Positions 15,986-63,851 of a stretch of 64,000 bases of DNA are shown piece after piece. Where the stretch lies: the NCBI GenBank assembly GCA_964016885.1, contig OZ024744.1, positions 107,136,001 to 107,200,000 of the forward strand, read 5' to 3'. Every line of letters begins with the position of its first letter. Within the stretch, counting starts at the first letter, position 1. The stretch comes from Eledone cirrhosa (taxonomy: Eukaryota). Below the pieces are notes generated by a model. The model had not been told where the DNA came from. It searched no databases and saw only the letters and a list, made by a program, of their open reading frames with translations. The position numbers and the translations under genes were made by a program.

Positions 15986-16201
15986 TTGGTATTTGTGATG
16001 CTGTGATGGGTGAGGGTGGTCGAACTGGGATGGATACTCGGGGAATACGGGTATTGTTACACAGACGAGATTCTGATGATTTACCCTCTGCAAATAAATT
16101 AATATTGCTCGATATATTTGACTCAAACATATATTCTGACATGTCAAAACTGTCAAAGTCCAACTCAACAGCTGAAGACCTTCCAGTTTTGTCTTGTTTG
16201 T
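15986..16201 (-). CDS. PPP4R4: PPP4R4-like exon (216 bp, or 102 bp from an internal acceptor at 16087)
   Basis: gtaagt donor; two in-frame phase-1 acceptors; ...ELDFDSFDMSEYMF...EGKSSESRLCNNTRIPRVSIPVRPPSPITASQIP. Confidence 0.7.
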
Positions 16202-16580
16202 CTTTTATTTGCAAAAAAAAACATTTTTTTGTTCTGCTTTGTTTTGTTCTTTGTCTTCTCTTTGTTAATTATCCTAATTTTATTATATATTTATATATAT
16301 ATATACAGACACATATATGTATATACACACACATGTATGTATACTCACACACACACACATGTATGTATACTCACACACACACACATATATGTGTGTGTAC
16401 ACATGTATATATAGAAAATAAAATTAGAATTTTATTTCTCGCTTTAGCACAGCTAATATAAAAATGTAAGTATGCATTCATACACACATACATATACATA
16501 TGTACGTATGTTTTATATCAAACATTAATAATACTACAAATTGAATATTATTATTATTGTTTGGTATAACTCATACATAT

Positions 16581-16969
16581 CATCATCATCATTCAGCATT
16601 TTACGTCCGCTTTTCCCTGCTTGCAAGGGTGGGACGGGAACTGATTCTGGCTCGATTTCTACAGCTGGATGCCCTTCTTAACACCAACCTCATTTACAGC
16701 GAGTGCTGGGTGATTTTTTTTCATGGCGCCTACACGTCCACTTTACAGTGTGGGCTGGGTGCTTTTTTGCCGTGACACCTCCACGACCACTCTATATTGG
16801 AATGATATGGAGCCCAGTCCTATCATCTCATTTCTACAGCTGAGTAAACTGGAGTAATGTGAAATAAAGTGTCTTGCTCAAGGAAACAACACATCACCCG
16901 GTCTGAGAATTAAACTCACGACTTTTCGATTTTAAGGCAAATGCTCTAACCACTAAGCCATGTGCCTCC
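16581..16969 (-). mobile_element. tRNA/RTE-tailed SINE (same family as 7494-7813)
   Basis: Reverse complement of the same head, body and tail, with gcggacgtaaaa and (tga)n. Confidence 0.85.
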
Positions 16970-17003
<34 letters not shown>

Positions 17004-17024
17004 ATATATATATATATATATATA

Positions 17025-17700
17025 TATAGTGCTGCCTATGTAAAATAGATTGCACTTGTTGCATTTTAGCCTGTATACTACATAGATACGTAGGCAACAA
17101 TTAGTGTTGCAGATAGGGCAATTGGCTAGGGTGCGTCCGTTATCCTCATTATGGAGTTGCCTTGTAGAGAGGCATCTTCGCAGGGAAGGTCCAGAGTGAG
17201 CTAGTTTGATATTGAGGCCCTCTCTTCTGATGGCTTTGCATATAGCATTGGTGGTTTCCTTGCTGAGATGTGGGATCTTGCAGAAGCAACTGTTGTTTGT
17301 GTTGGTCCGGCCTCTGGGTCTGGGGTTTTGTTGTGGGGTGGAGAAGGAATCTGGGTAGCCGTTAATCTCTAGTACCTTGTGGAATCGTCTGATATGGGTG
17401 GCTCTATTAGTTGCATATGCAAGCCATTTCGTTACATCTCCGTATTAAAGAGCATGTAAACAGCAACTCCTCTTCCTTCTGCAAACACATCATCAAATGT
17501 GGAAACCGGGACAACATTACCACCACAATCTTAGTTACCAAACACAGCAGAGGCACACTGAGAATTAAGGAAGCCCTCTTAATCAAGCAATTAAAACCTA
17601 GGATCAATAATCGAATGGAAAGAAGTGCACCAGAATGGCTAATTTAAAAGCCAGTATTCCAACATCCCAGAGGCCAGTTTCATTCTTTCTTTCAAATTAA
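17025..17700 (+). mobile_element. Penelope-like 3' fragment with an inverted 5' part
   Basis: Minus strand 17410 to 17025 encodes ...NGYP...CPICNTNCCLRIYVVYRLKCNKCNLFYIGSTI; plus strand from about 17426 continues ISLHLRIKEH...IKEALLIKQLKPRIN (GIY-YIG C-terminal half). Confidence 0.82.
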
Positions 17701-18039
17701 ATCTATGTCCTCACTAGGCAAACACACTTAGACTCACACACACACATACATATCTAATCTAATCTAATTTGGTCGAGTTTACACTCACAAATAAGAAGAA
17801 CTAGGGCCGCTCCTAGGAGCATTGGATTTGGTGTACTTCATATTTGTTTCAGTTGCTGAATACAATCAGGGGTCGCTGCTTCTCCTGAAGGTCAATAGTT
17901 CTCTTCTAACTCGAGCGGGAGCGCCTTTCCATTGTCAATTTGCATTGATCATCTGCAAAGCCACATTGTTCTCAGAACCACTACACCAGTCATTCGATGC
18001 GTGCAGTTGGAACTACTGCCACCCATTGATTTGGCAGGA

Positions 18040-18160
18040 TCACAGCTGAGTAAACTGGAGCAACATGAAATAAAGTGTCTTGCTCAAGGATACAACACAT
18101 CACCCAGTCCGAGAAGTGAACTCGATTGCATGCCCAATGCTCTAACCACTAAGCCTTCAC
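18040..18160 (-). mobile_element. SINE 5' fragment
   Basis: cagctgagtaaactggag...gtgtcttgctcaagga...ctctaaccactaagcc, as in 16840-16965. Confidence 0.75.
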
Positions 18161-18717
18161 CAACATGCATATATCGCACACATATTTTCCCCGTTTTATT
18201 ATATACATATTCGTACACATCTTTCACTACATAAACATGCACACACATACAAACATCCCACTAAGCACACTTACATATATCATACATTTCACAACGCGCA
18301 CGTTTGAAATTTTAATGTCTTTTCATTTCATTTAACTTAAATCTGCTCTCCAAACAAGCAAGTCAACACCTATTGATTTTTGAAGTGCCTCATACTTCCT
18401 TGATAATGGGTTTTTAAACCTGAAAATATTTGGGATCGTTAAATTTGCTAAGGTAAGATTCTTTTGTTATCTTAGCAATTTAATGTTCTTACTAACGCAT
18501 TGTTTGGTTTTCAAAATTATTTAAATTTGTTTTATATATATATATATATATACAATATATAGAGAAAGACACAGATACATGCGGACACATACATATACAT
18601 GAATATATCCACATCTATCCTTGAGTTAATGGTGCCAACCTTAACCGATGTTGCTCTATGAATAACTGGGACAAACCAATCCAAATGGATTAGACTGAAC
18701 CAGTATCAGAGCTATAA

Positions 18718-19117
18718 AGTACATTATGAAGAGAGAAGAAACATTAGATATAATTAGTAATAAGATATATCATACCTAAACTGCTTCTAAATTCCTCGAC
18801 TACGTAGTTTCGTGGCATATGCAAAAACACTACATCACAGAGATATAGAACTTTTGTGAGGTCTGCCAACTTATCAAGAGGATACCTCATTAAGGGTTTC
18901 AAAACACGTCTGTAAGATGCGAGATAGAATCCCGAAAGGCGGAGGGGGAGTCAATCACGTGATACAGCGGTCAAGAAACAGAGCTAAGCCTCTTATAACC
19001 CTGAAAAAAATACCACGGAGGTGGAAACTACGTAGTCGAGGAATTTAGAAGCAGTTTAGGTATGATATATCTTATTACTAATTATATCTAATGTTTCTTC
19101 TCTCTTCATAATGTACT
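18718..19117. repeat. 94-bp perfect inverted repeat with hammerhead-like half-motifs
   Basis: Arms 18718-18811 and 19024-19117 are reverse complements; each includes GAAACTACGTAGTC. Confidence 0.9.
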
Positions 19118-19299
19118 ATATATATATATATATATAGACACCCACAGATAGGCAGGCAAACATATCTGCACACAAATAAGTTTATATATGTGTACAGATA
19201 ATAGAATTATTAAATATACATAAAATTGAGAGTTTTACTAATAGTTTCAATTTTAGCAATATTTCAAATCTGGGAAATTGGGAGGACAAACTAACAAGT

Positions 19300-19890
19300 A
19301 AGTTACACAGTGGTGTGTAGTGAAGTTACACAGTGTTGTGTAGGACACAGTGGTGTCTGGTAAAGTTAGTGGTGTGTAGGACACAGTGGTGTGTAGGATA
19401 CAGTGGTGTGTAGGACACAGTGTTGTGTAGGACACAGTGGTGTGTGCTAGAGTTACACAGTGTTGTGTGGTGAAGTTACACAGTGGTGTGTGGTAGAGTT
19501 ACACAGTGTTGTGTGGTAAAGTTACACAGTGGTGTGTGGTAGAGTTACAGTGGTGTGTGGTAGAGTTACACAGTGGTGTGTGGTAGAGTTACAGTGGTGT
19601 GTGGTAGAGTTACACAGTGGTGTGTGGTAGAGTTACACAGTGGTGTGTGGTAAAGTTACACAGTGGTGTGTGGTAAAGTTACACAGTGGTGTGTGGTAAA
19701 GTTACACAGTGGTGTGTGGTAGAGTTACACAGTGGTGTGTGGTAAAGTTACACAGTGGTGTGTGGTAAAGTTACACAGTGTTGTGTGGTAAAGTTACACA
19801 GTGGTGTGTTGTAGAGTTACACAGTGGTGTGTGGTAGAGTTACACAGTGTTGTGTGGTAAAGTTACACAGTGGTGTGTGGTAAAGTTACT
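19300..19890. repeat. ~25-bp minisatellite (19-bp variant at the left end)
   Basis: agttacacagtggtgtgtggtaa/g units. Confidence 0.92.
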
Positions 19891-20325
19891 GGTATACATG
19901 GGGAACTGCTGGTCTCCCACAGAAAACACCTTGCCCAGGCTTGTGCTCCGGAGAGTTTTTTTTATAAATATACATTTCCATAAATGAATACTAACTACAA
20001 TACTATAATAATAAATAATGATGAAATTATTGTGTACAGTGCTCAAGTGCACTACAACTCATCAAAGGTGCATGTATAGTATATAGAATAATATACAAAT
20101 GTCAGGAAAGTGTACAGTGTATGTGTCATGATATTCATGTGTGCGAATTAGATAACATACATTAGTACATTATTTCTGAAAATAAGATGGGATGGTCACA
20201 GCTGGAACATCTTTGATGACAGGTCTGTCATATCATCACTGACCTGGGGCTAAACAATAACAACTTTAATTTTTAGGACTATTCACAATGAAATTTCCAT
20301 AAAATGAAAGAATAAATAACTTTAC

Positions 20326-20406
20326 CTTTTGATGTCGGAAGAGAAGAGGTACCAATGATAGGTATTTTTGTGTCTCTTTTGCTAGCAGAGTCCACAAGCT
20401 TGGTAT
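20326..20406 (-). CDS. PPP4R4: PPP4R4-like exon (81 bp; NAGNAG alternative 84 bp)
   Basis: gaagcag tandem acceptor, gtaaag donor, phase 1-1; DTKLVDSASKRDTKIPIIGTSSLPTSK. Confidence 0.72.
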
Positions 20407-20582
20407 CTGCTTCAGAGAATTAAATAATAGAAAAAAACAAAAAAGTTAAAAAAACAAAAACAAACAAAACATCACAATTGAAATATATAAATCAAAATAA
20501 AATTGTTTCTAAAAAAAGCACAAAACCAGAAATCTTGAGGAAATTTGTTTTGTAACATTAGAAGGGGAAGATTTGACAACTC

Positions 20583-21073
20583 CTATTGGTGAGAAGAGAG
20601 TGTACTTGAGATGAAAAACTACACAACAGAACTATTGGTGTGGAGAAGGTGTACTTGAAATGAAAAACTATACAACAAAATTATTGGTGTGGAAAAGGTG
20701 TACTTGAAATGAAAAACTATACAACAAAACTATTGGTGTGGAGAAGGTGTACTTGAGATGAAAAACTATACAACAGAACTATTGGTGTAGAGAAGGTGTA
20801 CTTGAGATGAAAAACTATACAACAGAACTATTGGTGTGGAGAAGGTGTACTTGAAATGAAAAACTATACAACAGAACTATTGGTGTGGAGAAGGTGTACT
20901 TGAGATGAAAAACTATACAACAAAACTAGTGGTGTGGAGAAGGTGTACTTGGGATGAAAAACTATACAACAAAACTATTGGTGTAGAGAAGGTGTACTTG
21001 AGATGAAAAACTATACAACAGAACTATTGGTGTGGAGAAGGTGTACTTGAGATGAAAAACTATACAACAGAAC
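20583..21073. repeat. 49-bp minisatellite, about 10 copies
   Basis: tattggtgtggagaaggtgtacttgagatgaaaaactatacaacagaac; starts at 20633, 20682, 20731. Confidence 0.95.
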
Positions 21074-21727
21074 ATGAAGAAATTTATCAAAAGTGAAAAT
21101 TGAAAAAAGGGAATTTATCAAATGTAAAAACTGAATTGAGGAAAATCTGTTCTATATTTTGTACCAATTTATATATCCCATATTTTGATGAAAATATAAA
21201 ATAGTCTATTAAGCTGTAATAGCATCGTAACTGGTGGAAATCCTGCTTCCATGCCCTCATCCCACTTTTGACCCCCCCACGTAATGACCCTTTTGGCTCC
21301 TTGTATTTGAGATCCCTGTACTATCCCTTCCCAATCAATACAATTATTTTTTATTTAACATTAACTGTATTTTTTTTTTTTATATTTTGTTTTATATTTC
21401 TGGCTATTGTTTCACTGGTTAACAATTACTCCCCCCACCAACACATTACAACCTCTACTCCACTAACTACACTGTCTCCTCACTAACTATTATACCACTA
21501 CTACTACTACATCCTCTGAACTAGTCAGTTATGAATCACACTACTAATTAACAAACACTCACTAACTCACTCTATTATACCACTACTACTGCATTGCATG
21601 GGTAATACAATCACACATTACACTATAAACAAACACACACACAACACTATAAACACACACATTTTGAATAGACAGAAAATATTTTACAAGTTGGTAGATT
21701 GTTTTATTAAAAATTGTTCCGCCTTAC

Positions 21728-21820
21728 CTGGTTTAGGAATTTGTGAAGCAGTACATATTGATGAAGTGGATCGGGATTTAACAAGTCGACAGTTTGGTAT
21801 TGAGGAACCTTTGGTTTTCA
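21728..21820 (-). CDS. PPP4R4: PPP4R4-like exon (93 bp)
   Basis: tttcag acceptor, gtaagg donor, phase 1-1; VKTKGSSIPNCRLVKSRSTSSICTASQIPKP. Confidence 0.75.
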
Positions 21821-22401
21821 CTGAAAATTTAATTATAAATCAAGACAAAATCATTAAGAATTCTCATCAGCTCTCAACCTGGCTTGCAGTTTCGCACAAA
21901 ATGAGAGAACTCCAATTTTTATGCCAGCTAGTGCAACACAAAATAGACGAAGCAGAGAATGAGAGAAAGTGTGACTGGACTGTAATGTGTTGCTAGCTAA
22001 AAGGAAAGGGACGGCCCTAGGACAGAAGTGGCAGTAAATAGAAGCAACAGCTGGAGCAGCAAGCATGAGAAGGAACAAGTGATAAGTAGAGGGAGGAGAG
22101 GAAGAAACGAGAGAGAAAAGGAGAAGAAAGGGAAAAGAAAAAAAAGAATGTTGTATGTGGTTTTGTATCATCTTGTTAGGTTTGTAACTTTAATCCTGGC
22201 TCTTATTGTAACCTTTTGTCTTCCTTTCTTTCTTCTTTATCACTTCTAAGTATCAACATACTCCTCTCTATCTCTCCCACCTCACAACTTTACCTCTCTC
22301 CATAGCAATCATTTGCCAATGTTTCCTCTTCTTAGGGTTTTTTATCTGACTTACAAGTAATTGTCAATGATAGCACTTGGCTGTTTTAACATCTCTTCCT
22401 T

Positions 22402-22650
22402 ATCATCATCATCGTTTTACGTCCGTTCTTCCACGCTAGCATGGGTTAGATGGGTTGTCCTGTTGTGGGCAGTGTCTGGTCGGCTGACCTTGTCTTGCTC
22501 ATACGGGAACTGATTCTGGCCTGATTTCTACAGCTGGATGCCCTTCCTAACACCAACCTCATTTACAGTAGGTGCTGGGTGCTTTTTTTTCCATGGCGCC
22601 TACACAACCACTTTACAGTGTGGACTGGGTGCTTTTTGTCATGACACTTC
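22402..22650 (-). mobile_element. Non-autonomous RTE-derived bipartite element
   Basis: (gat)n tail, gcatggaagaacggacgtaaaa-like end and the ggtgttaggaagggcatccagc motif; a similar plus-strand copy lies at about 24040-24217. Confidence 0.65.
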
Positions 22651-22850
22651 CCCAACCATTTTGCAGTGGGAGGGGGTGGAGACATATTGTCTATATGCTT
22701 CAGCTTTGGCTTGTACCTGTGGGAACTCGGGTCTTCTGTATTATTGTGTAATGCCAGAGGTCATGGTCCTGGTTCTCCACCTTTGACAGGTGCAATTGGG
22801 CAAGGTCTGCTTTTATCACCTCATCCCAGGTCTTCTTGGGTCTCCCCACT

Positions 22851-22887
<37 letters not shown>

Positions 22888-23386
22888 AAAGGTAGACAGA
22901 AATAACAAGACAAATGGTACAGTATATGGAAGGAATATATTAGTTTAATGCTTGAAATAAAGGTGATAATATTTCGGACACTAGTCATTCATCAGAAGAA
23001 AGAATGAGAAATTAGAAAGATTGAAGGGATGAGCAGGGCGGAATCAGAAATAAATTTTTTTAGAGAAAAATAACAGGTCCATTCATGTTGCTATCGCTTG
23101 GAAAACTGTTGATGCTGGTATATAAAATTGATATATCACCATATTTGCAGGCTGTCCCTGAATCAAATTTTCTATCTACTATTTTTTTCTCTATCTCTTG
23201 TCTATTCTATCTTTAGGTTCAACGTAATCCTGTTACATAATTCTGCAAACAACACCTGATGAAATCACCTTGTCTTGCACCATAATCGGATGATAGAGTT
23301 GGGTCATCCAAATATGTATAGTGCTTTCACAGAATTAAAATTCTGAAGTAAATTTTCCAGCCCGGCCTCCTGTTGTTTTAATGAGT

Positions 23387-23436
<50 letters not shown>

Positions 23437-23805
23437 TATAGTTCAGATAATCTGCTACAAAATTCCATTTCCCTCTTCTAAGGCAAAGATTTCCGTTCCT
23501 TGTCTTTTCTCTGCCATACAATTTCTCTATGACCACAGGCTATTTGTGCTATGGACATATGTATGCATATATATTTGTGTGTACGTATTTATATGAATGT
23601 GTATATATCTATATGTGTGTGTATATAGTTACAATGTATGTATGCACATATATATATATATATATATTTATAATGTATGTATGCATATATATATATATAT
23701 TTATATATGTGTGTGTTTGAAGTATGTAACAGGAAAATTATATTATATATTTCTCTATAAAAAGTCTACTGTATTAACAAATAATATCTAAATTTTCCAA
23801 CCATG

Positions 23806-23851
<46 letters not shown>

Positions 23852-24228
23852 TCTATAAATATAAAAAGAGATTGACAGAAACACAGAAAGATATACAGAG
23901 ATAGATAGATAGAAAGGGAGTGTAGAGAAAGTAGTTGTTTACACTTCTTCTAGAAGAGTCTTCTCTCGTTCACATAAATACTGTTGCAAAAGCTTTCTCC
24001 CCATTTTCACACTATAAAGTGTTTGTTTTGGTGCCCTGATAAAAAGCACCCAATCTACATAGTAATGAGGTTGGCATTAGGGAGGGCATCCAGCCGTAGA
24101 AACCAAGCCAGTAACGGTTCTGAGCAAGACATGGTCACTTGATCTGTCTTGTCTCATAACAGGACAACTTGTCTAACCCATGCTAGCATGGAAGAAAGGA
24201 TGTTAAGCTGTGATGATATATTCCTTAC

Positions 24229-24336
24229 CTTTTGGAGGACATACTGGCATTGAACTGGATGAACAATTGCTTAAGGATTTTTTGGTTTCTTTTAATGGAG
24301 TTGGACTTGACCGTTTCTCTGAAGTGGATTTTTGAG
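24229..24336 (-). CDS. PPP4R4: PPP4R4-like exon (108 bp)
   Basis: Pyrimidine tract plus aag acceptor, gtaagg donor, phase 1-1; AQKSTSEKRSSPTPLKETKKSLSNCSSSSMPVCPPK. Confidence 0.75.
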
Positions 24337-24414
24337 CTTTAAACATAAAAGAGAAAAAGAATAATACTTATTCATTAATATCTCTATTACAAAATAGACA
24401 GTGAATACCAGCCA

Positions 24415-24630
24415 CAGTTAACACTAGACACTAGACACTACCACATTGACCACCAGACACTACCACAGTGACCACTACACACTACCACAGTGACCACTAG
24501 ACACTACCACATTGACCACCAGACACTACCACAGTGACCACCAGACACTACCACATTGACCACCAGACACTACCACAGTGACCACTACAGACTACCACAG
24601 TGACCACTACACACTACCACAGTGACCACT
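24415..24630. repeat. ~22-bp minisatellite
   Basis: gacactaccacagtgaccacca units. Confidence 0.9.
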
Positions 24631-24682
24631 ATTTCTATGAACAGAATCCCAGCACCCACGAACATGGTGAACACTGGTGTTA

Positions 24683-27064
24683 CCCCTATATCTTCCAGCT
24701 GAACTGTGAATCAGTGATTCCCATAAGTCAAGTTAATCCCTATATCTTCCAGCTGAACTGTGAATCAGTGATTCCCATAAGTCAAGTTAATCCCTATATC
24801 TTCCAGCTGAATTATGAATCAGTGATTCCCATAAGTCAAGTTAATCCCTATATCTTCCAGCTGAATTATGAATCAGTGATTCCCATAAGTCAAGTTAATC
24901 CCTATATCTTCCAGCTGAATTATGAATCAGTGATTCCCATAAGCCAAGTTACTCCCTATATCTTCCAGCTGAATTATGAATCAGTGATTCCCATAAGTCA
25001 AGTTAATCCCTATATCTTCCAGCTGAATTATGAATCAGTGATTCCCATAAGTCAAGTTAATCCCTATATCTTCCAGCTGAATTATGAATCAGTGATTCCC
25101 ATAAGCCAAGTTACTCCCTATATCTTCCAGCTGAATTATGAATCAGTGATTCCCATAAGTCAAGTTAATCCCTATATCTTCCAGCTGAATTATGAATCAG
25201 TGATTCCCATAAGTCAAGTTACTCCCTATATCTTCCAGCTGAATTATGAATCAGTGATTCCCATAAGTCAAGTTAATCCCTATATCTTCCAGCTGAACTG
25301 TGAATCAGTGATTCCCATAAGCCAAGTTACTCCCTATATCTTCCAGCTGAACTGTGAATCAGTGATTCCCATAAGTCAAGTTACTCCCTATATCTTCCAG
25401 CTGAACTGTGAATCAGTGATTCCCATAAGTCAAGTTACTCCCTATATCTTCCAGCTGAACTGTGAATAAGTGATTCCCATAAGTCAAGTTACTCCCTATA
25501 TCTTCCAGCTGAACTGTGAATCAGTGATTCCCATAAGTCAAGTTACTCCCTATATCTTCCAGCTGAACTGTGAATCAGTGATTCCCATAAGTCAAGTTAC
25601 CCCCTATATCTTCCAGCTGAACTGTGAATCAGTGATTCCCATAAGTCAAGTTACTCCCTATATCTTCCAGCTGAACTGTGAATCAGTGATTCCCATAAGT
25701 CAAGTTACCCCCTATATCTTCCAGCTGAACTGTGAATCAGTGATTCCCATAAGTCAAGTTACTCCCTATATCTTCCAGCTGAACTGTGAATAAGTGATTC
25801 CCATAAGTCAAGTTACTCCCTATATCTTCCAGCTGAACTGTGAATAAGTGATTCCCATAAGTCAAGTTACTCCCTATATCTTCCAGCTGAACTGTGAATC
25901 AGTGATTCCCATAAGTCAAGTTACTCCCTATATCTTCCAGCTGAACTGTGAATAAGTGATTCCCATAAGTCAAGTGACTCCCTATATCTTCCAGCTGAAC
26001 TGTGAATCAGTGATTCCCATAAGCCAAGTTACTCCCTATATCTTCCAGCTGAATTATGAATCAGTGATTCCCATAAGTCAAGTTACTCCCTATATCTTCC
26101 AGCTGAACTGTGAATCAGTGATTCCCATAAGTCAAGTTACCCCCTATATCTTCCAGCTGAACTGTGAATCAGTGATTCCCATAAGTCAAGTTACTCCCTA
26201 TATCTTCCAGCTGAACTGTGAATCAGTGATTCCCATAAGTCAAGTTACCCCCTATATCTTCCAGCTGAACTGTGAATCAGTGATTCCCATAAGTCAAGTT
26301 ACTCCCTATATCTTCCAGCTGAACTGTGAATCAGTGATTCCCATAAGTCAAGTTACTCCCTATATCTTCCAGCTGAACTGTGAATCAGTGATTCCCATAA
26401 GCCAAGTTACTCCCTATATCTTCCAGCTGAATTATGAATCAGTGATTCCCATAAGTCAAGTTAATCCCTATATCTTCCAGCTGAATTATGAATCAGTGAT
26501 TCCCATAAGTCAAGTTAATCCCTATATCTTCCAGCTGAACTGTGAATCAGTGATTCCCATAAGCCAAGTTACTCCCTATATCTTCCAGCTGAACTGTGAA
26601 TCAGTGATTCCCATAAGTCAAGTTACTCCCTATATCTTCCAGCTGAACTGTGAATCAGTGATTCCCATAAGTCAAGTTACCCCCTATATCTTCCAGCTGA
26701 ACTGTGAATCAGTGATTCCCATAAGTCAAGTTACTCCTTATATCTTCCAGCTGAACTGTGAATCAGTGATTCCCATAAGTCAAGTTACTCCCTATATCTT
26801 CCAGCTGAACTGTGAATCAGTGATTCCCATAAGCCAAGTTACTCCCTATATCTTCCAGCTGAATTATGAATCAGTGATTCCCATAAGTCAAGTTAATCCC
26901 TATATCTTCCAGCTGAATTATGAATCAGTGATTCCCATAAGTCAAGTTAATCCCTATATCTTCCAGCTGAACTGTGAATCAGTGATTCCCATAAGTCAAG
27001 TTACTCCCTATATCTTCCAGCTGAACTGTCAATAAGTGATTCCCATAAGTCAAGTTACCCCCTA
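24683..27064. repeat. 54-bp satellite, about 44 copies
   Basis: ccctatatcttccagctgaactgtgaatcagtgattcccataagtcaagttact; highly homogeneous. Confidence 0.97.
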
Positions 27065-27095
27065 AATAACCACAACAATAAGAACCTACATTTAC

Positions 27096-27174
27096 CCAAG
27101 ACCTTTCTTGCAGACGGTATCTTAGAAAATGGTACATCTTTCTTTAGCTTGGACTTTTCTTCATTTTTTTCATC
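27096..27174 (-). CDS. PPP4R4: PPP4R4-like exon (79 bp)
   Basis: Polypyrimidine tract plus aag acceptor, gtaaat donor, phase 0-1; DEKNEEKSKLKKDVPFSKIPSARKVL. Confidence 0.75.
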
Positions 27175-31110: not shown

Positions 31111-34100
31111 GACCATGCTGTAAAATGGAGGGGTAGAGAGGGCCCTTGAGTCTAGTAAGACATCCTCTCTAGTGCTGGTGGCACAAATAAAAGCACCCAG
31201 TCCATGCTGTAAAGTGGCGCTGGTGTTAGGAAGGGCATCCAACCAGTGTATCAATGCCAAAAAGCTTATCAGCACAGCAACAAAACAGCATAGAAAAAAA
31301 TATGAAGACGTCGCATCTCAGAGTTGCAACACTTAATGTTGGCACTCTCAGAGGTAGATCTGGTGAAATAGCGGAGATGCTGGAGAGAAGGCAGGTGGAT
31401 GTGTGCTGCGTGCAAGAGGTGAGATGGAGAGGTGCCTCTGCGAGACTAGTCGTAGGCAAGCGTCTTAGCTATAAGCTATTCTGGGTAGGTAAGGATGATG
31501 GGTTAGGGGGAGTAGGCATTTTCCTGGCTGAGAAATGGATCAATAAGACAATAGAGGTAGTTCGAGTTAGTAATCGAATAATTAAGCTTAGATTAGTTGT
31601 AGGTAGGAGACTACTGACAATCATCTCGGTCTATGCTCCCCAAGCAGGCCTAGGCAAAGATGAGAAAGACTGCTTTTATGAGCAACTTTTGCAAACAACC
31701 ACAATGACAGAGGACGGAGACATCGTTATGCTAGCAGGAGACTTCAATGGTCATGTTGGACAGCTCCAGGATGGTTACACTGGGGTACATGGTGGGCATG
31801 GTTACGGTTCAAGAAATGAAGAAGGAGTGAGACTTCTTGAATTTTGTGATGCAAGTACATTGACTATTTGCAACACAAACTTCCAGAAACCTGCCAATCA
31901 CCTAATAACCTACAAATCTGGTGAGCACATAAGCCAGATTGACTTCCTGCTAGTTAGGCAGCGGGACAGGCAGATAGTGTCTAATACCAAGGCATACCCT
32001 GGGGAAGAATGTACCCCACAGCATAGGTTAGTTGTTAGTGATATCTCAGTAAGCAAGAGATGGAATGAGCCATATAGGAAGGTGTGGAGAAGAAAGGTCT
32101 GGAAGCTAAAAGACCTTTCACTAAAATTCAAATTTAGGAAAGCCCTTCAAGATGTATATGACGAAAAAGAAGACGATTTAGAGATGTATGACATAGATAA
32201 TAACTGGAAGTTCTTACGTGACAACTTGCTGAAGGCTACTGATGAAACTTGTGGCTGGAGCAGAGCCCCAACCAGACAGAGAGTGACCTGGTGGTGGAAC
32301 AGCAGTGTAGATAAGGCTATTAGAGACAAAAGACTAGCATGGAAGGCTTGGAATAAGGGTGGGAGTAGGGAAGAATATACAGCCACTAAGAGAGAAGCTA
32401 GACGTCAGGTGTACTTAGCACGCAGGGAGGCAGAGAGTAGGAGGTTTGCCAATGTTCTGCGACGGGAAGATCAGAGGCGTGCGGTGTTCCACATTGCAAG
32501 GCAGTGTGTCAATGCAAATCAGGATGTTGTTGGTGATAAATGTGTCCGGGATGATGCCGGTGTACTTAGTGTCACGAATGACCAGAAAAAGGAGGCCTGG
32601 AAATGCCATTATGAGAGACTGATGAATGTGGAGAACGAATGGGAGAGAGAGAAATTACCCTTGGTAGATCCGACAGAGGGACCAGCTATTGAGATTGACG
32701 AATATAGGGTCCAAGAGGCGATTAGGGAAATGAAAAATGGTAAGGCGGCCGGACCATCGGGAATAGTTGCTGCAAAGGTAAAGGGGATGCTTTGGAGAGG
32801 AGCAATTATAGGGGTATAAAACTGATAGATCAGGTTATGAAAGTGGCAGAAAGGATTTTAGCACAACTAATTAGAGAAAGGGTCAAACTAGATGAGATGC
32901 AGTTTGGTTTTGTGCCTGGGAAGAGTACAACAGATGCCCTCTTCTTGGTGAGACAAATGCAAGAGAGGTTCTTAGAGAAGAATAAGCCACTATACTTGGC
33001 CTTTGTTGACCTAGAGAAGGCCTTTGATAGGGTACCCCGATCTGTCATCTGGTGGTCCCTAAGGAAGCTGGGTGTTGAGGAATGGCTTGTAAGGACAGTG
33101 CAAACTTTGTACAGAGGTACTCTCAGTAAAGTCAGGGTAGGAATGGAGTTTAGTGAGGAATTCCAGATACAAGTAGGAGTACATCAGGGTTCGGTCCTCA
33201 GCCCGCTCTTGTTCATTATAGTCCTCCAAGCCATAACAGAGGAGTTTAAGACTGGCTGTCCATGGGAACTTCTCTATGCTGACGATCTGGCTCTTATGGC
33301 AGAATCAGTAGAGGAGCTAGAGAATAAATTCCGGCTATGGAAACAGCAGTTGGAAGCAAGAGGACTGAGAGTAAATCTAGCTAAGACAAAAGTGTTGATG
33401 AGTAGAAAAGAGGACAAAACCCTGATTCCGTCAGGGAAATGGCCATGTTCGATATGCAGAAAAGGAACTGGCATAAATTCTATAAAATGCACACAATGTA
33501 GGTCCTGGGTACACAAGAGATGTAGCGGGATAGCAGGCAAACTAACAGGTAGGGAGAAATATGTATGCAGTAGATGTACAGGGAAATTAGACAGTAGAAG
33601 TCGCACTGATAGACACATTTTTCAAATGCGAGAGGGCGCTATAGAAGTGGTGGATAGCTTCCGGTACCTAGGAGATCAGATTAGCATGGGAGGAGGGTGT
33701 TCCGAGGCCATAGTATCTAGAATAAGGACGGGTTGGAAGAAGTTTAGGGAGCTGCTTCCTCTGTTGACGAAGAAGGGTTTCTCCCTGCGTACGAAAGGCC
33801 GGTTGTATGATGCCTGTGTGAGGAGCGCGATGCTGCATGGTAGTGAGACATGGGCAGCTACCGCAGAAGATATGCGACGGCTGGAGAGAAATGAGGCAAG
33901 CATGCTCCGTTGGATGTGCAGTGTAAATGTGCGTGAACGACCCAGCATAAATGTGTTGAGAGAGAAACTGTGTCTGAGAGGGATAGAATGTAGTGTACGG
34001 GAGAGGAGACTGAGGTGGTATGGACATGTGATGCGCATGGAGGATGACCGATGGGTGAAGAAGTGCCAGGAAATGCCAGTTGAAGGAAGACGTAGTAGAG

Positions 34101-34278
34101 GTAGACCATTAAAAACATGGGCGGAGGTGGTGAGAACAGACCTCAGATCATTGAAGCTCACGGTGGAGATGACGAGGGACCGTGACGAGTGGAGAGATGC
34201 TGTGCTGAATAAGACCCGTCCCACCCTTGCAAGCAGGGAAAAGCGGACGTAAAATGATGATGATGATGATGATGATGA
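31108..34278 (+). mobile_element. Near full-length RTE-clade LINE (APE + RT + PHD-type finger) with a (TGA)n tail
   Basis: APE motifs TLNVGTL, VQEVRW, SVYAPQ, AGDFNGHVG, SQIDFLL, QHRLVV; RT motifs QFGF, FVDLEKAFDRV, HQGSVLSPLLF, YADD (33275), FRYLG, LRWYGHV; one frameshifting deletion at about 32772. Confidence 0.95.
31254..34252 (+). pseudogene. RTE ORF (endonuclease/reverse transcriptase) split by one deletion-frameshift
   Basis: ORFs 31254-32819 and 32792-34252; GPSGIVA is joined directly to KGKGDALERSNYRGI, so the usual intervening segment is missing. Confidence 0.88.
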
Positions 34279-34595: not shown

Positions 34596-35048
34596 TGGCG
34601 AAAGAGGTTGTATGGTGGACAAGGTTGAAAGGGCTGAGGTCAGACACCTTTCTCTCCGGCCAACAACTGATTCTTTTTTTCAAATACCACTTTGGAAGAA
34701 GAATCAGGATGGAGAGAGAGGTGCTGTACCCCAGCAAGTTTTATGAAAGGTGGGTGAAAGTGGCGAGAATGGCCCGAGTGAATAGGCCTTCTCTCTATAT
34801 CAGCCTGTAGGTTGAGGAAAAGGAGGAGGAGAGGAAAGGAGTACAAGCTCTTCGTACTCCTGGAGATGAGGGTTGCACATTTTTTCGGGGGTATGTGTTA
34901 CCCATATAAACTGTCTCCCTCTATTGGGGAAAATCGACTAACTTTTAAATTCCATCTGTGATAACATTTTACACGTTTTTATTGTATGTAAACTTCCCCC
35001 TTTGTATTTGTCCCCTTCTTTTGTGCCCCTGTGGCTAATAAAGAAATA
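34596..35048 (+). mobile_element. 5'-truncated L1/Tx1-like 3' end inserted in the 60-bp satellite
   Basis: AKEVVWWTRLKGL... resembles the L1/Tx1 ORF2 C-terminal K..IW..R motif; followed by a 3' UTR and AATAAA at about 35037. Confidence 0.6.
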
Positions 35049-38000
35049 TATCTACATTATTCTATATTTACTATTATATTTTCACAGTAAAGGTTTTATC
35101 TCATAACATTTTACATTACTCTATATTTACTATTGTATTTTCACAGTAAAGGTTTTATCTCACATATCTACATTATTCTATATATACTATTGTATTTTCA
35201 CAGTAAAGGTTTTATCTCACATAACATTTACATTACTCTATATCTACTATTATATTTTCACAGTAAAGGTTTTATCTCATAACATTTTACATTACTCTAT
35301 ATTTACTATTGTATTTTCACAGTAAAGGTTTTATCTCACATAATATCTACATTATTCTATATATACTATTGTATTTTCACAGTAAAGGTTTTATCTCACA
35401 TATCTACATTACTCTATATTTACTATTATATTTTCACAGTAAAGGTTTTATCTTACATAACATTTACATTACTCTATATTTACTATTGTATTTTCACAGT
35501 AACGGTTTTATCTCACATAACATTTACATTACTCTATATTTACTATTATATTTTCACAGTAAAGGTTTTATCTTACATGTATTTTCACAGTAAAGGTTTT
35601 ATCTCACACAATATCTACATTACTCTATATATACTATTATATTTTCACAGTAAAGGTTTTATCTCACATAACATTTACATTACTCTATATTTACTATTAT
35701 ATTTTCACAGTAAAGGTTTTATCTTACATAACATTTACATTACTCTATATTTACTATTGTATTTTCACAGTAAAGGTTTTATCTCACATAATATTTACAT
35801 TACTCTATATTTACTGTTGTATTTTCACAGTAAAGGTTTTATCTTACATAACATTTACATTATTCTATATTTACTATTGTATTTTCACAGTAAAGGTTTT
35901 ATCTCACATAATATCTACATTACTCTATATATACTATTGTATTTTCACAGTAAAGGTTTTATCTCACATAACATTTACATTACTCTATATTTACTATTAT
36001 ATTTTCACAGTAAAGGTTTTATCTCACATAACTACATTACTCTATATTTACTATTGTATTTTCACAGTAAAGGTTTTATCTCACATAATATCTACATTAT
36101 TCTATATTTACTGTTGTATTTTCACAGTAAAGGTTTTATCTCACATAATATCTACATTACTCTATATATACTATTATATTTTCACAGTAAAGGTTTTATC
36201 TCACATAACATTTACATTACTCTATATTTACTATTGTATTTTCACAGTAAAGGTTTTATCTCACATAATATCTACATTATTCTATATTTACTATTGAATT
36301 TTCACAGTAAAGGTTTTATCTCACATAATATCTACATTACTCTATATTTACTGTTGTATTTTCACAGTAAAGGTTTTATCTCACATAATATCTACATTAT
36401 TCTATATTTACTGTTGTATTTTCACAGTAAAGGTTTTATCTCACATAATATCTACATTATTCTATATTTACTGTTGTATTTTCACAGTAAAGGTTTTACC
36501 TAACATAATATCTACATTACTCTATATTTACTATTGTATTTTCACAGTAAAGGTTTTATCTCACACAATATCTACATTATTCTATATTTACTGTTATATT
36601 TTCACAGTAAAGGTTTTATCTCACATAACATTTTACATTACTCTATATATACTATTGTATTTTCACAGTAAAGGTTTTATCTCACATAATAACTACATTA
36701 TTCTATATTTACTGTTGTATTTTCACAGTAAAGGTTTTACCTCACATAATATCTACATTATTCTATATTTACTATTGTATTTTCACAGTAAAGGTTTTAT
36801 CTCACATAACATTTACATTATTCTATATTTACTATTGTATTTTCACAGTAAAGGTTTTACCTCACATAATATCTACATTACTCTATATTTACTATTGTAT
36901 TTTCACAGTAAAGGTTTTATCTCACATAATAACTACATTACTCTATATTTACTATTGTATTTTCACAGTAAAGGTTTTATCTTACATAATAACTACATTA
37001 CTCTATATTTACTATTGTATTTTCACAGTAAAGGTTTTATCTCACATAATAACTACATTACTCTATATTTACTATTATATTTTCACAGTAAAGGTTTTAT
37101 CTCACATAATATCTACATTATTCTATATTTACTATTGTATTTTCACAGTAAAGGTTTTATCTCACATAATATCTACATTATTCTATATTTACTATTGTAT
37201 TTTCACAGTAAAGGTTTTACCTCACATAATATCTACATTACTCTATATTTACTATTGTATTTTCACAGTAAAGGTTTTATCTCACGTAATATCTACATTA
37301 TTCTATATTTACTATTGTATTTTCACAGTAAAGGTTTTATCTCACATAATATCTACATTACTCTATATTTACTATTATATTTTCACAGTAAAGGTTTTAT
37401 CTCACGTAATATCTATATTATTCTATATTTACTATTGTATTTTCACGGTAAAGGTTTTATCTCACATAATAACTACATTATTCTATATATACTATTGTAT
37501 TTTCACAGTAAAGGTTTTATCTCACATAACATTTACATTACTCTATATTTACTATTGTATTTTCACAGTAAAGGTTTTATCTCACATAACATTTACATTA
37601 CTCTATATTTACTGTTGTATTTTCACAGTAAAGGTTTTATCTCACATAATATCTACATTACTCTATATTTACTATTGTATTTTCACAGTAAAGGTTTTAT
37701 CTCACATAATATCTACATTACTCTATATATACTATTATATTTTCACAGTAAAGGTTTTATCACATAATATCTACATTATTCTATATTTACTATTGTATTT
37801 TCACAGTAAAGGTTTTATCTCACATAATATCTACATTACTCTATATTTACTATTATATTTTCACAGTAAAGGTTTTACCTCACATAATATCTACATTACT
37901 CTATATTTACTATTGTATTTTCACAGTAAAGGTTTTATCTCACATAACATTTTACATTACTCTATATATACTATTGTATTTTCACAGTAAAGGTTTTATC

Positions 38001-39699
38001 TCACATAACATTTACATTACTCTATATTTACTATTGTATTTTCACAGTAAAGGTTTTATCTCACATAATATCTACATTATTCTATATTTACTATTGTATT
38101 TTCACAGTAAAGGTTTTATCTCACATAATATCTACATTATTCTATATTTACTATTGTATTTTCACAGTAAAGGTTTTACCTCACATAATATCTACATTAT
38201 TCTATATTTACAGTTGTATTTTCACAGTAAAGGTTTTACCTCACATAATATCTACATTATTCTATATTTACTATTCTATTTTCACAGTAAAGGTTTTATC
38301 TCACATAACATTTACATTATTCTATATTTACTATTGTATTTTCACAGTAAAGGTTTTACCTCACATAATATCTACATTATTCTATATTTACTATTGTATT
38401 TTCACAGTAAAGGTTTTATCTCACACAATAACTACATTATTCTATATTTACTATTATATTTTCACAGTAAAGGTTTTATCTCACATAATATCTACATTAC
38501 TCTATATTTACTGTTGTATTTTCACAGTAAAGGTTTTATCTCACACAATATCTACATTACTCTATATTTACTGTTGTATTTTCACAGTAAAGGTTTTATC
38601 TCACACAATATCTACATTACTCTATATTTACTATTATATTTTCACAGTAAAGGTTTTATCTCACATAATATCTACATTACTCTATATTTACTGTTGTATT
38701 TTCACAGTAAAGGTTTTATCTCACATAACATCTACATTACTCTATATTTACTGTTGTATTTTCACAGTAAAGGTTTTATCTCACATAACATTTACATTAT
38801 TCTATATTTACTATTGTATTTTCACAGTAAAGGTTTTATCTCACATAACATTTACATTACTCTATATTTACTATTATATTTTCACAGTAAAGGTTTTATC
38901 TCACATAATATCTACATTACTCTATATTTACTGTTGTATTTTCACAGTAAAGGTTTTATCTCACATAACATTTACATTATTCTATATTTACTATTGTATT
39001 TTCACAGTAAAGGCTTTATCTCACATAATATCTACATTACTCTATATTTACTGTTGTATTTTCACAGTAAAGGTTTTATCTCACATAATATCTACATTAC
39101 TCTATATATACTATTGTATTTTCACAGTAAAGGTTTTATCTCACATAATAACTACATTATTCTATATTTACTGTTGTATTTTCACAGTAAAGGTTTTATC
39201 TCACATAACATTTACATTATTCTATATATACTATTGTATTTTCACAGTAAAGGTTTTATCTCACATAACATCTACATTACTCTATATATACTATTGTATT
39301 TTCACAGTAAAGGTTTTATCTTACATAACATTTACATTACTCTATATTTACTATTATATTTTCACAGTAAAGGTTTTATCTCACATAATATCTACATTAC
39401 TCTATATTTACTATTGTATTTTCACAGTAAAGGTTTTATCTCACATAACTACATTATTCTATATATACTATTGTATTTTCACAGTAAAGGTTTTATCTCA
39501 CATAATAACTACATTATTCTATATTTACTATTATATTTCCACAGTAAAGGTTTTCTCTCACATAATATCTACATTACTCTATATTTACTGTTGTATTTTC
39601 ACAGTAAAGGTTTTATCTCACATAATATCTACATTACTCTATATTTACTATTATATTTTCACAGTAAAGGTTTTATCTCACATAACATTTACATTATTC

Positions 39700-41566: not shown

Positions 41567-43113
41567 TCAGCGCAGCTGCTTCTGATTCAATTTTATGAAG
41601 CACAGTCTCTCCGACTCCATCTTTGCAGCCATGTCAACGGCAAACTGGTGAAACAGTTCCCGTGATCTGTGCAGGGGGCTAAAATCATTAGGCCTCGTCA
41701 TGAAGCGGTATGAGTACAAAGCCATACATGAAACAGTTTTAGATGTCGCAGCAGTGGGCTCGTTTGGTTTGCACTGAGGAATGCCGAAATGGTAGCCGTC
41801 TTCTCCGTATGCAAAAAGAAGGGGATACTGCAGGGCGTCGTAGGAACGATGTGTCTCATTAATACGCTGAAGACCACTGTCACGGCTTTGAAGAACTATG
41901 TCTCGCTTATTGTGCTGTTCACCATGGAGAACTACAGCCACTTCATTGCACGAAGGAGCGTTATAACGGCGTGCGTGCTCTCCAGAAGGTCTTTTGTCAG
42001 CATCGATGACAATGGTGAAGATTGGTGAAGGAGCTGTTTCCAAGGCGTATTTAAAACTGCGAATATAGCTGTTGTGCTCATGAAGCATGTTTTGCAGACT
42101 GAGCAGCACGTCCCTGTCAAAGTTGTCAGCGTCAGTGTTTGCAGGTGGTGGAATAACGCCAAACCGCACACCAACTTGCCTAATGTAGTTCGAAATAAAG
42201 TAAATTTGAAGGAACGAAGGCTTGCAATTTTGTAGTGGCTGGAGCGACCCAATAAGATGGTACACCTGCCCCTGGACCTTGAAAGTAGGCATCCAACCAC
42301 TTTCTCTGACAACGTTAGCCCCGAAAGAAGTCATCTGAAACGCACAATTGTATTTCCTGATGATCTGAAGGAATTTGGATGACCTTGAGGTATAACCAGT
42401 CAGTAGTTCCTTCAAAGGCTCTGGCGGTTCCGGAAGAGAGAGCAAGGCAAGGTGACCTTACCGTTTAAACAGCACATTGCAGGTGGCTCCCCAGCCCACT
42501 TTGTAGCATTGCAGAATTGGCAATTGAAGCGCATCTCGCTTATATTTATGTCAGAGCGCATCTAGTAATTAACGTTTTGCTCATACTTGAAAGCCTGTAG
42601 GTGCCAGTAAGGGCTGTTGGGGCTCGTCACACCGCGTGCAGCTTCTCGCCGTCGACTGTTACGCTTGAACGTAGAACATTGGTCGTGTGGTTGGTGGGAA
42701 GGTCTGGCAGCAATAGCAGAAGCAATATTTGCAATGCTAATGGACCGCCCGTCTGCATCTTCAGAAGCCATGGAAGTAGTCATAGCCGCAGCGTTCGTAG
42801 GAAGGCGAGCCGTCCGTTGTTTTAAACGTTCCAAAGACCCGGAAGCAGCATTAGTCGCAGCGTTTCTAGCCAGGCGCTTCGAGCTTTGTTCACGGATCTC
42901 TGAAGCCCTGGAAGAAGCCTGGTATGAAGCCATTTTGGCTAGGCGTGCGGTGCGCTGTTGGAAACTTTCAGCGGCTCGACATTCTGCTGAACGTAAGGCT
43001 GTCTGTGAAAGTCTTGAAGCATTTTCCTCAGAGGACTCGTTTGCTATAGTAGCCTTTTGCGCCACTGCTGACGCGGTATGTCGACTGAGGCGACTTCTCT
43101 TTTTAGGTGGCAT
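41567..43113 (-). pseudogene. Truncated Helitron RepHel coding sequence
   Basis: Two collinear ORFs separated by a stop and frameshift; ends at NQKQLR, before the Rep motifs. Confidence 0.85.
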
Positions 43114-43245
43114 TTTATGTCCAAAAGAAAGGGTGAAATTTAGTTCTACAGAAAAATTTACTTTGAAAGTCTACTGTTTGTTTATGAATATTGTTATTGT
43201 TGTTGTGATACAAATGTTATTAAGTAAATGGGTATCGAAAAATAA

Positions 43246-46265: not shown

Positions 46266-46352
46266 ATTTAGTAAACTTATTTCCTCAGCCTCTCGATGCA
46301 CATCAATTAAATCTTCTGCTGCCTGTAATGACTCCTGAGTTTTGGATCCAAG
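46266..46352 (-). CDS. PPP4R4: PPP4R4-like exon (87 bp, coiled-coil start)
   Basis: cttcag acceptor, gtaag donor, phase 0-0; LGSKTQESLQAAEDLIDVHREAEEISLLN resembles the recalled PPP4R4 motif DLLDQEKEREELLLL. Confidence 0.82.
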
Positions 46353-46496: not shown

Positions 46497-49400
46497 TCTA
46501 AATAGTAAGGTACTATATAGTTCTGTAAATAGTAAGGTACTATTTGGTTCTGTAAATAGTAAGGTACTATATAGTTCTGTAAATAGTAAGGTACTATATA
46601 GTTCTGTAAATAGTAAGGTACTATATAGTTCTGTAAATAGTAAGATACTATATAGTACTGTAAATAGTAAGGTTCTATATAGTACTGTAAATAGTAAGGT
46701 ACTATATAGTTATGTAAATAGTAGAGTTTTATATAGTTCTGTAAATAGTAAGGTACTATATAGTTCTGTAAATAGTAAGGTACTATATAGTTATGTAAAT
46801 AGTAAGATACTATATAGTTCTGTAAATAGTAAGGTACGTTGACTTACGTCTCCGAACCTTCGTGTATTTATTTGTAGGTATGTGTGTGCGCTTGTTATAT
46901 ACGTATTTATTTACTTATATACGTTTATATAATTATTTATTTATTTGTACACAAGCATACACACATACACATATTTATATGTGCGTGGTTTTGTATACCT
47001 ATGGTAAGGTTTTACGTATGCTTGTGTATGTACATATCTGTTTGCGCGTATGTATTTATTTGTTTCTATTACTTCAGTATTGTATTTATTTACTTTGTTC
47101 TTAACTCTGTAGCGGAGATTCATTCGGTCTCCTAGTTAGAATTTTAGTCTACAACTTCTGCTATACCATTTACGTGGTTTTGTCTTTGCGTGCTATTGTT
47201 CTCCACGCTCCACACAAACGTGGTTCTGTCTTTGCGCGTAATTGTTTTTCACCGCTCCTATTAATGACGTATTATATTCGTTTTTTCCCGTTCTTTGCCA
47301 GCGAACGTCACCACGAACCAAAGTATCGTCTTCCTGTCTTCCTACGGTTGCAACGTTTTTTGAAATATCCAGTACTGCGTTTACAGATTGACTTTGTTAG
47401 TTTCAGAAGATCCCGTTAAGGGTGAAAGCAGCGATTCTTTGCTTAAACTTTAATCTGTTATTTTAATAAATATTTGCTCTTCGGTTCTTATATATTTGAT
47501 ATATATTTTCCTTATCGAGCCCTCTTTGGATTTTAGTTTTCAATTTTATTATTATTACTAGTAAGGTACTATATAGTTCTGTAAATAGTAAAGTACTATA
47601 TAGTTCTGTAAATAGTAGAGTATTATATAGTTCTGTAAATAGTAAGGTACTATATAGTTCTGTAAATAGTAAGATACTATAAAGTTCTGTAAATAGTAAA
47701 GTACTATATAGTTATATAAATAGTAAGATATATATAGTTATGTAAATAGTAAGATACTATATAGTTCTGTAAATAGTAAGATACTATATAGTTCTGTAAA
47801 TACTAAGGTACTATATAGTTATATAAATAGTAAGGTACTATATAATTCCGTAAATACAAAGGTACTATATAGTTATATAAATAGTAAGGTACTATATAGT
47901 TCTGTAAATAGTAAGATACTATATAGTTCTGTAAATAGTAAAGTACTATATAGTTATGTAAATAGTAAAGTACTATATAGTTATATAAATAGTAAGGTAC
48001 TATATAGTTATGTAAATAGTAGAGTACTATATAGTTCTGTAAATAGTAGAGTACTATATAGTACTGTAAATAGTAAGGTACTATATAGTTCTGTAAATAG
48101 TAAGGTACTATATAGTTCTGTAAATAGTAAAGTACTATATAGTTATATAAATAGTAAAGTACTATATAGTTATGTAAATAGTAAGATACTATATAGTTCT
48201 GTAAATAGTAAGATACTATATAGTTCTGTAAATAGCAGAGTACTATATAGTTCTGTAAATAGTAAGGTACTATATAGTTCTGTAAATAGTAAGGTACTAT
48301 ATAGTTCTGTAAATAGTAAAGTACTATATAGTTATGTAAATAGAGTACTATATAGTTATGCAAATAGTAAGGTACTATATTGTTCTGTAAATACTAAGAT
48401 ACTATATAGTTATGTAAATAGTAGAGTACTATATAGTTACGTAAATAGTAAGGTACTATATAGTTCTGTAAATAGTAAAGTACTATATAGTTATGAAAAT
48501 AGTAAGGTACTATATAGTTCTGTAAATAGTAAGGTACTATATAGTTATGTAAATAGTAAAGTACTATATAGTTCTGTAAATAGTAAAGTACTATATAGTT
48601 CTGTAAATAGTAAGATACTATATAGTTCTGTAAATAGCAGAGTACTATATAGTTCTGTAAATAGCAGAGTACTATATAGTTCTGTAAATAGTAAAGTACT
48701 ATATAGTTATGTAAATAGTAAGGTACTATATAGTTATGTAAATAGTAAGGTACTATATAGTTCTGTAAATAGTAAGGTACTATATAGTTCTGTAAATACT
48801 AAGGTACTATATAGTTCTGTAAATAGTAAAGTACTATATAGTTATGTAAATAGTAAAGTACTATATAGTTATGTAAATAGTAAAGTACTATATAGTTATG
48901 TATATAGTAAGATACTATATAGTTCTGTAAATAGTAAGATACTATATAGTTCTGTAAATAGCAGAGTACTATATAGTTCTGTAAATAGTAAGGTACTATA
49001 TAGTTCTGTAAATAGTAAGATACTATACAGTTCTGTAAATAGCAGAGTACTATATAGTTCTGTAAATAGTAAAGTACTATATAGTTCTGTAAATAGTAAG
49101 GTACTATATAGTTCTGTAAATAGTAAAGTACTATATAGTTCTGTAAATAGTAAAGTACTATATAGTTCTGTAAATAGTAAGATACTATATAGTTCTGTAA
49201 ATAGTAAGATACTATATAGTTCTGTAAATAGTAAGATACTATATAGTTCTGTAAATAGTAAGATACTATATAGTTCTGTAAATAGTAAGATACTATATAG
49301 TTCTGTAAATAGCAGAGTACTATATAGTTCTGTAAATAGCAGAGTACTATATAGTTCTGTAAATAGCAGAGTACTATATAGTTCTGTAAATAGTAAAGTA

Positions 49401-62788: not shown

Positions 62789-62854
62789 TGCCAGTATACC
62801 ACCAGCTTAATACCAAGATCAAATCAATATGTAAACAAATGAAGTTATACTTAC

Positions 62855-62896
62855 CAAATGAACAGGCACAACAATTTGTTCGAGATCCCAGAGTGC
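62855..62896 (-). CDS. PPP4R4: PPP4R4-like exon (42 bp)
   Basis: tctag acceptor, gtaag donor, phase 0-0; ALWDLEQIVVPVHL continues the frame of the previous exon. Confidence 0.82.
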
Positions 62897-63561: not shown

Positions 63562-63851
63562 CTGTTTAGCAAAGGTGAGAACATCTGGGTCTTTATCAGA
63601 TCTGAGTATTTTACCGGCAACCTTACAGAGATCAGATAATCGGGCATCATCTTCAGGTAGGCTTAGTGTTTGTTTCATGTACGGAATGAATCTAAATAGT
63701 TTTAATCGGATATTTGGAACTGGATCACAATAGAGGCTGAGAGCATTATCAAAAAACTTCTCCTTGAAAAATGACTTTGAATAGATATCTAAACTGATGC
63801 TGCAAACATCGAGGTACAAACTGCGGAAGTAGCAGTTACCCGCCGATAACT
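63562..63851 (-). CDS. PPP4R4: PPP4R4-like coding exon (last HEAT-repeat region)
   Basis: ttccag acceptor and gtaag donor; 290 bp, phase 1 to 0. It encodes ELSAGNCYFRSLYLDVCSISLDIYSKSFFKEKFFDNALSLYCDPVPNIRLKL...DKDPDVLTFAKQ, which resembles my recollection of vertebrate PPP4R4 (IFSKSFFCKYFF...HDPVANVRMKL...EKDKDVL). Confidence 0.88.

Follow-up and report, generated by a model that had tools for sequence, protein, structure and literature searches.

Is a regulatory subunit of protein phosphatase 4 (PP4) directed to growing microtubule ends by a signal in its own tail? The question is raised by PPP4R4, a minus-strand gene encoding the subunit PP4R4, in a 64,000-nucleotide stretch of the genome of Eledone cirrhosa (assembly GCA_964016885.1, contig OZ024744.1, positions 107,136,001 to 107,200,000 of the forward strand; hereafter the window, whose own numbering is used throughout). 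Motifs of the form S/T-x-I/L-P (SxIP motifs), lying in basic, serine-rich and disordered sequence, are the textbook plus-end targeting signal recognised by EB proteins, and the original prediction held that the spliced PPP4R4 tail carries an exon-by-exon array of them, so that in this lineage the subunit may be a plus-end tracking protein (+TIP) delivering PP4. We find the array to be a real and conserved feature, namely a known type of signal on a newly recognised carrier with a new distribution. An SxIP tail recurs across protostomes and is nearly absent in deuterostomes and in the outer clades of our sample, and the protostome subunit is, as far as sequence comparison can tell, probably an EB-binding protein that follows microtubule plus ends. 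The EB-binding reading thus receives strong comparative support, from splicing, predicted disorder, conservation, the preference for K/R at position x, and controls without enrichment; what has to be widened is its lineage scope, the trait extending across protostomes, with molluscs, annelids and arthropods among them.

The assignment of the gene to PPP4R4 is borne out by the ordered match of its exons and by its place in a tree of protein cores, and on these sequence grounds it is the octopod orthologue. The most 5′ exon in the window, over 63562-63849, is 89–90% identical to the named PPP4R4 of Octopus bimaculoides and O. vulgaris. A tblastn search with these proteins, against the window and the neighbouring 200 kb, places the exons in sequential order, mostly at 70–100%, from about 107 kb past the window end down to about 11060. 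In the tree, the octopod rows cluster with named PPP4R4 of other animals, which indicates orthology over the whole core. The core bears a Pfam HEAT match, is helical over residues 61–721 in the model of the O. vulgaris protein, and resembles the PP2A A subunits more than any other solved structure, in sequence as in fold (Foldseek TM 0.8 on the target), so that it is predicted to be a PP2A-A-like HEAT solenoid.

Beyond the core, a single gapless 508-nt contig of run X3, from which the introns are absent, joins 27168-27090, 24336-24229, 21820-21728, 20406-20326 and 16087-15986; its depth is 4.5, the kind of run is not recorded, and no run is recorded as RNA for the stretch. Each tail exon has AG/GT ends and matches O. 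bimaculoides PPP4R4 at 77–97%. The first, at 27090-27174 (85 nt), carries SKIP at 27126-27115; the second, at 24229-24336 (108 nt), has no true motif and reads SSMP at 24256-24245; the third, at 21728-21820 (93 nt), carries SSIP at 21806-21795 and SQIP at 21746-21735; the fourth, at 20326-20406 (81 nt), TKIP at 20371-20360 and SSLP at 20347-20336; and the fifth, at 15986-16087 (102 nt), TRIP at 16052-16041 and SQIP at 15998-15987. An alignment bears on the first three in addition to the contig, and the flank rule discussed below was applied to the motifs of all but the second. The predicted splicing of the five exons is therefore upheld by the contig, with one correction: the donor placed at 27096 gives way to 27090, 6 nt beyond it and in frame. 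Both donors are in frame in the sequence, and use of the distal one lengthens the tail by two residues that other octopods are without. As the second to fifth exons measure 108, 93, 81 and 102 nt, all multiples of three, each could be skipped in frame. Position 15986 closes the array of motifs and not the gene, which continues below it in motif-free exons at about 12124-12070 and about 11235-11063 (the latter Thr-rich), both located on the minus strand by tblastn, AG/GT ends and an open frame and with tentative boundaries. A candidate last exon at 10580-10540 on the same strand is similar to the O. bimaculoides C-terminus, its frame and junction being tentative. An ab initio search for exons, in which acceptors were strictly filtered, overlooked the true tail exons.

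All the named motifs were located correctly and on the minus strand. The 156 residues of the five-exon tail contain six SxIP and one SxLP, hence seven [ST]-x-[IL]-P motifs in exons joined by one contig; shuffled tails have a mean of 0.36 SxIP, and none of 200,000 shuffles reaches six. The composition (K+R 32, D+E 12, S+T+P 62) agrees with the earlier description of a Ser/Lys/Pro-rich tail, and in the O. vulgaris model tail residues 722–960 show no secondary structure and pLDDT below 50 almost throughout; the motifs are accordingly predicted to lie in a disordered, basic and Ser/Pro-rich setting. SSMP, proposed as a near-motif, did not hold up: both Octopus species read SLTP at this place, Argonauta offers no match, and one cephalopod-like transcript reads SVLP, which leaves motifs in four of the five tail exons. 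TASQIP does occur in two exons of this species, as had been noticed, although O. bimaculoides has SASQIP and TVSHIP in its place; the double copy is peculiar to this species, and its reading as a sign of exon duplication was rejected. Jiang et al. gave a flank rule, quoted in PMC3649978, that asks for K/R nearby and no D/E. SKIP, SSIP and TRIP, three of the seven, pass it, and TRIP has R next, like the EB1 aptamer consensus. An ELM-style pattern is passed by three of the seven as well, a partly different set, and is not relied on here. The other type of EB motif, LxxPTPh, has one match across the tails of the 43 protostome genera described below.

Conservation singles out the motifs from their surroundings. 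In five related cephalopod sequences, the S/T, I/L and P positions of the motifs are invariant at 18 of 21, versus 59 of 135 other positions (Fisher p 0.0003). Across 26 spiralian tails, the first SKIP supplies four of the eight best columns, with its P, K, I and S kept at 96, 96, 85 and 81% and the median column at 31%. The alignment check proposed at the outset therefore came out in favour of motifs conserved above their flanks. The first SKIP (27126-27115) is the most conserved and is present in every isoform compared. Isoform models and transcripts vary by whole blocks, with four motifs or one in Mytilus, four or three in Ylistrum, and five, four or two in oyster-like contigs, all of them retaining the first SKIP; in E. 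cirrhosa itself no skipping was seen. Directly after the first SKIP (27114-27100), other cephalopods read S-P-R-K, which fits the consensus of a CDK-type site, and the present sequence S-A-R-K. Many molluscs share a K-S-[KR]-S-[TS] block before an SQIP-type motif (window 21790-21735; P0009, P0011, P0014, P0016, P0093), and an RRGS word recurs farther along the tail. Block and word are possible phospho-switches.

How widely the tail is shared was assessed in the best 120 of 224 matches, with one named protein per genus and unnamed rows excluded; 43 protostome genera (Tegillarca, having no tail, was dropped), 21 deuterostome genera without mammals, and 2 cnidarian genera were counted. In the protostome tails 119 SxIP were counted where composition predicts 9.6, with at least one in 42 of the 43 genera and at least two in 32. 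Deuterostome tails hold 2 (1.6 expected) and cnidarian tails none (0.1 expected). Because isoforms had been picked after the counts were seen, the count was repeated on all rows and on the poorest isoforms: the 61 named protostome rows contain 165 SxIP (12.4 expected; 58 rows positive) and the 35 deuterostome rows 3 (2.5 expected). When each protostome genus is represented by its poorest isoform, 114 are left against 9.3, and 41 of 43 genera are positive. S.IP leads all patterns of the form a.bc by enrichment in protostome tails and ranks below fifteenth place in those of deuterostomes. Patterns with the order changed occur in protostome tails at 0.5–0.9 times expectation, except IPx[ST] at 2.2 times, and the disordered linkers of EB itself, taken as a control, hold 1 SxIP against 1.2 expected. 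The excess is found in each of 11 protostome lineages (four are classes of Mollusca, and five contribute a single genus each), and a site passing the flank rule in 39 of the 43 genera. A wider set of 137 new representatives from a profile-free search, 98 of them with a usable tail, was placed by a FastTree of cores. Its insect-anchored clade (27 rows, 7 named insects) holds 44 SxIP against 6.6 expected, with 23 rows positive, and its outer clades (39 rows, the seven named members being an acoel, a hydrozoan, a sponge, Pigoraptor, a chytrid, a glaucophyte and a green alga) hold 1 against 4.0. The tree has no root, and protostomes do not come out of it as a single clade; 11 trait changes were counted on it (162 rows) with no shuffled baseline, and this count is not used as evidence.

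Motif positions differ between groups, arthropod motifs often lying near the C-terminus and spiralian ones directly after the core. Positions have thus turned over as the word itself persisted, a pattern that points to selection. One S-[LI]-[LI]-P is kept in hemichordates, crinoids and teleosts, and SALP is found in both anthozoans, so that a weak ancestral site is possible. Two PPP4R4-like proteins, encoded on separate contigs, occur in Babylonia, one with six motifs and the other with none (P0052, P0053 and P0061 cover Babylonia and Nucella).

The local sequence around the motifs fits EB as a partner, and an EB gene is present in the same genome. K/R stands at x in 67 of the 119 protostome sites, versus an 18% background, and Drosophila EB1 aptamers favour R/K at x and R/V at the next place (PMC3967968). 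Several points weigh on the other side. Four of the seven window motifs (both SQIP, TKIP and SSLP) fail the flank rule, the SQIP at 21746-21735 through an Asp three residues past the motif whose column recurs in many molluscs. According to the aptamer paper, SxIP alone is insufficient, EB1 leaves the majority of SxIP-containing peptides unbound, and in two-hybrid assays EB1 binding was almost lost when the aptamer was repeated four or seven times in tandem (PMC3967968); PMC12695022 adds that residues following the motif determine EB affinity. With three of seven motifs passing the flank rule and tandem aptamers losing binding, it is not certain that many copies raise avidity. The splice junctions rest on one contig of one run. 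Genera are related, so that pooled counts are not independent; the nematode-anchored clade (10 rows, one named nematode) is weak, with 6 SxIP against 2.2 expected and 4 rows positive, and the tails of two caenogastropod proteins, one from Babylonia and that of Nucella, have no SxIP. The title of Chen 2008, moreover, describes the human PP4R4 complex as cytosolic. A complex prediction of the O. vulgaris EB C-terminal dimer with a 33-residue peptide of the TRIP exon counts for neither side; it scored 0.02 and 0.11 against a mark of 0.34, the tool being unvalidated on peptides and disordered chains and having been run with no alignment and no controls folded.

Taking both sides together, we consider it highly probable that the tail binds the EBH domain of EB, and probable that PP4R4 as a whole works as a HEAT core with an SxIP tail that binds EB and carries the subunit, and PP4 where bound, to growing plus ends. 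Human PP4R4 forms a dimer with the catalytic subunit PP4C (PMC7196183, PMC8630191 and PMC12909836). The protostome core would bind PP4C in the same way, the SxIP tail would dock in the EBH pocket and concentrate the subunit at growing ends, and the docked tail would bring bound PP4 there. Since core and tail are separate, EB and PP4C could bind together, and the chances that PP4C is bound simultaneously, and hence concentrated at plus ends, seem to us evenly balanced. Skipping of the frame-preserving cassette exons might tune the number of motifs, the first SKIP staying in place, and the array may have been gained on the protostome stem, because it is missing from the other taxa. The full scheme, in which protostome PP4R4 gained a plus-end address, kept it through motif turnover, and places a PP4C–PP4R4 holoenzyme on EB comets with a valency tuned by exon skipping, is offered tentatively, at somewhat under even chances.

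Three other explanations deserve attention. The tail may bind EB while the subunit acts as a PP4C-free scaffold at microtubule ends or the cortex, or as a sink for PP4C, instead of delivering active phosphatase. There is a precedent in iASPP, a partner of PP1 whose SRIP motif binds EB1; in this protein phosphatase binding hampers EB1 binding and is dispensable for spindle function. Endogenous iASPP, moreover, forms no comets (PMC8562848), and these facts also count against comet-borne PP4 here. Likewise, human PP4R4 can rise without greater incorporation into the PP4 holoenzyme (PMC8630191). A core about 40% identical from octopus to fish, with a PP2A-A-like fold, and the known human PP4R4–PP4C dimer nevertheless make this explanation unlikely. 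Another partner, or electrostatic binding to the microtubule lattice or the axoneme, could be served by a conserved [ST/G]-[KR]-I-P with EB not the main ligand. In protostome tails G-x-IP is enriched about 10-fold (20 against 1.9 expected), which a strict SxIP reading would not predict and which therefore also tells against EB, and [KR]IP 13-fold; the first motif residue is thus not strict. The family also has links to cilia. Mouse Ppp4r4 figures among candidate cilia genes (PMC3069013), and Chlamydomonas FAP14 is a flagellar PP2A-scaffold-like protein (PMC3784568). FAP14 is probably the algal PPP4R4. However, S/T precedes 119 of 162 IP pairs, motifs departing from SxIP at a single position retain weak EB1 binding (PMC3967968), and the outer clades, including flagellated algae and a chytrid, are without the motif, so that we regard such a ligand as distinctly improbable.

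Chance matches without function might be suspected for so short a motif in a Ser-rich tail, given that most SxIP peptides are not EB1 binders (PMC3967968). The 12-fold protostome excess over composition, its absence from deuterostome tails and from reordered patterns, and conservation above the flanks render such an origin highly improbable. The reading in which EB recruits the subunit to plus ends remains the one that we prefer. If it is true, the least understood PP4 subunit gains a location and a substrate class, phospho-regulated +TIPs, invisible to human-only work, and molluscs, annelids and arthropods a candidate phosphatase for +TIP regulation. The targeting signal would be present in one bilaterian half and nearly absent in the other, and a conserved EB-docking tail offers a cheap, direct test of the place and role of PP4R4.

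The remainder of the window, AT-rich and repeat-laden in a genome of 3.0 Gb, contains three further PPP4R4 coding exons on the minus strand: 63562-63851 in the HEAT-repeat core (90% identity to O. bimaculoides PPP4R4, with a place in the tblastn exon map and splice sites), upstream of which the 5′ exons lie beyond the window; 62855-62896, also core (tblastn 93%, AG/GT); and 46266-46352, encoding the final core helices (tblastn 90%, AG/GT). One intron harbours a LINE-type retrotransposon at 31230-34252 on the plus strand, with a 529-aa endonuclease open reading frame (ORF) overlapping a 502-aa reverse transcriptase (RT) ORF that also bears a PHD finger, and a Helitron fragment at 41567-43170 on the minus strand with Helitron_like_N and STPR matches. 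Further intronic arrays comprise about 15 kb of 27-bp units at 47700-62800, with open frames near 1000 codons, and some 70–77 copies of a 60-bp unit at 35048-39696. The intron separating the first tail exon from the second holds a 54-bp minisatellite of 44 copies (24679-27064), each unit of which spells SVIP on the plus strand; these repeats were rejected as motifs, lying opposite to the coding strand, and their SVIP is a coincidence.

PP4 has been linked to microtubule organisation (review PMC7196183), and C. elegans F46C5.6 is named as a PPP4R4 orthologue (PMC7735605). The passages available assign no targeting role to PP4R4. No report pairing PPP4R4 with SxIP was found in the literature searched, outside which lie most subscription journals and in whose supplements an interaction could be listed, and among the matches listed none pairs PP4R4 names or ‘protein phosphatase 4’ with EB terms. 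PPP4R4 and EB1 are co-mentioned once each in a neutrophil and a uterine transcriptome paper, and two small supplementary files of the EB1 interactome PMC4365484, to which that search was confined, hold no PP4 term.

Among known systems, human PPP4R4 (PP4R4, KIAA1622) is closest in its orthologous HEAT core, its PP2A-A-like fold and a basic, Ser-rich tail after the core, whereas deuterostome tails have no SxIP excess and keep no more than a single weak S-[LI]-[LI]-P. With the SxIP +TIPs MACF, APC, CLASP, MCAK and STIM1 (PMC3649978 and PMC12695022), the octopod tail shares the S/T-x-I/L-P motif in several copies, a basic, Ser/Pro-rich and predicted disordered setting, and K/R at x; it differs in the flanks of four of its seven motifs, which fail the flank rule, and in its putative cargo, which would be a PP4 subunit. 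Like PP4R4, iASPP is a phosphatase partner with SxIP in a disordered region, but it unites one motif with PP1 and an ankyrin/SH3 architecture, on vertebrate data, where PP4R4 combines several motifs, PP4 and a HEAT solenoid in a protostome-restricted form.

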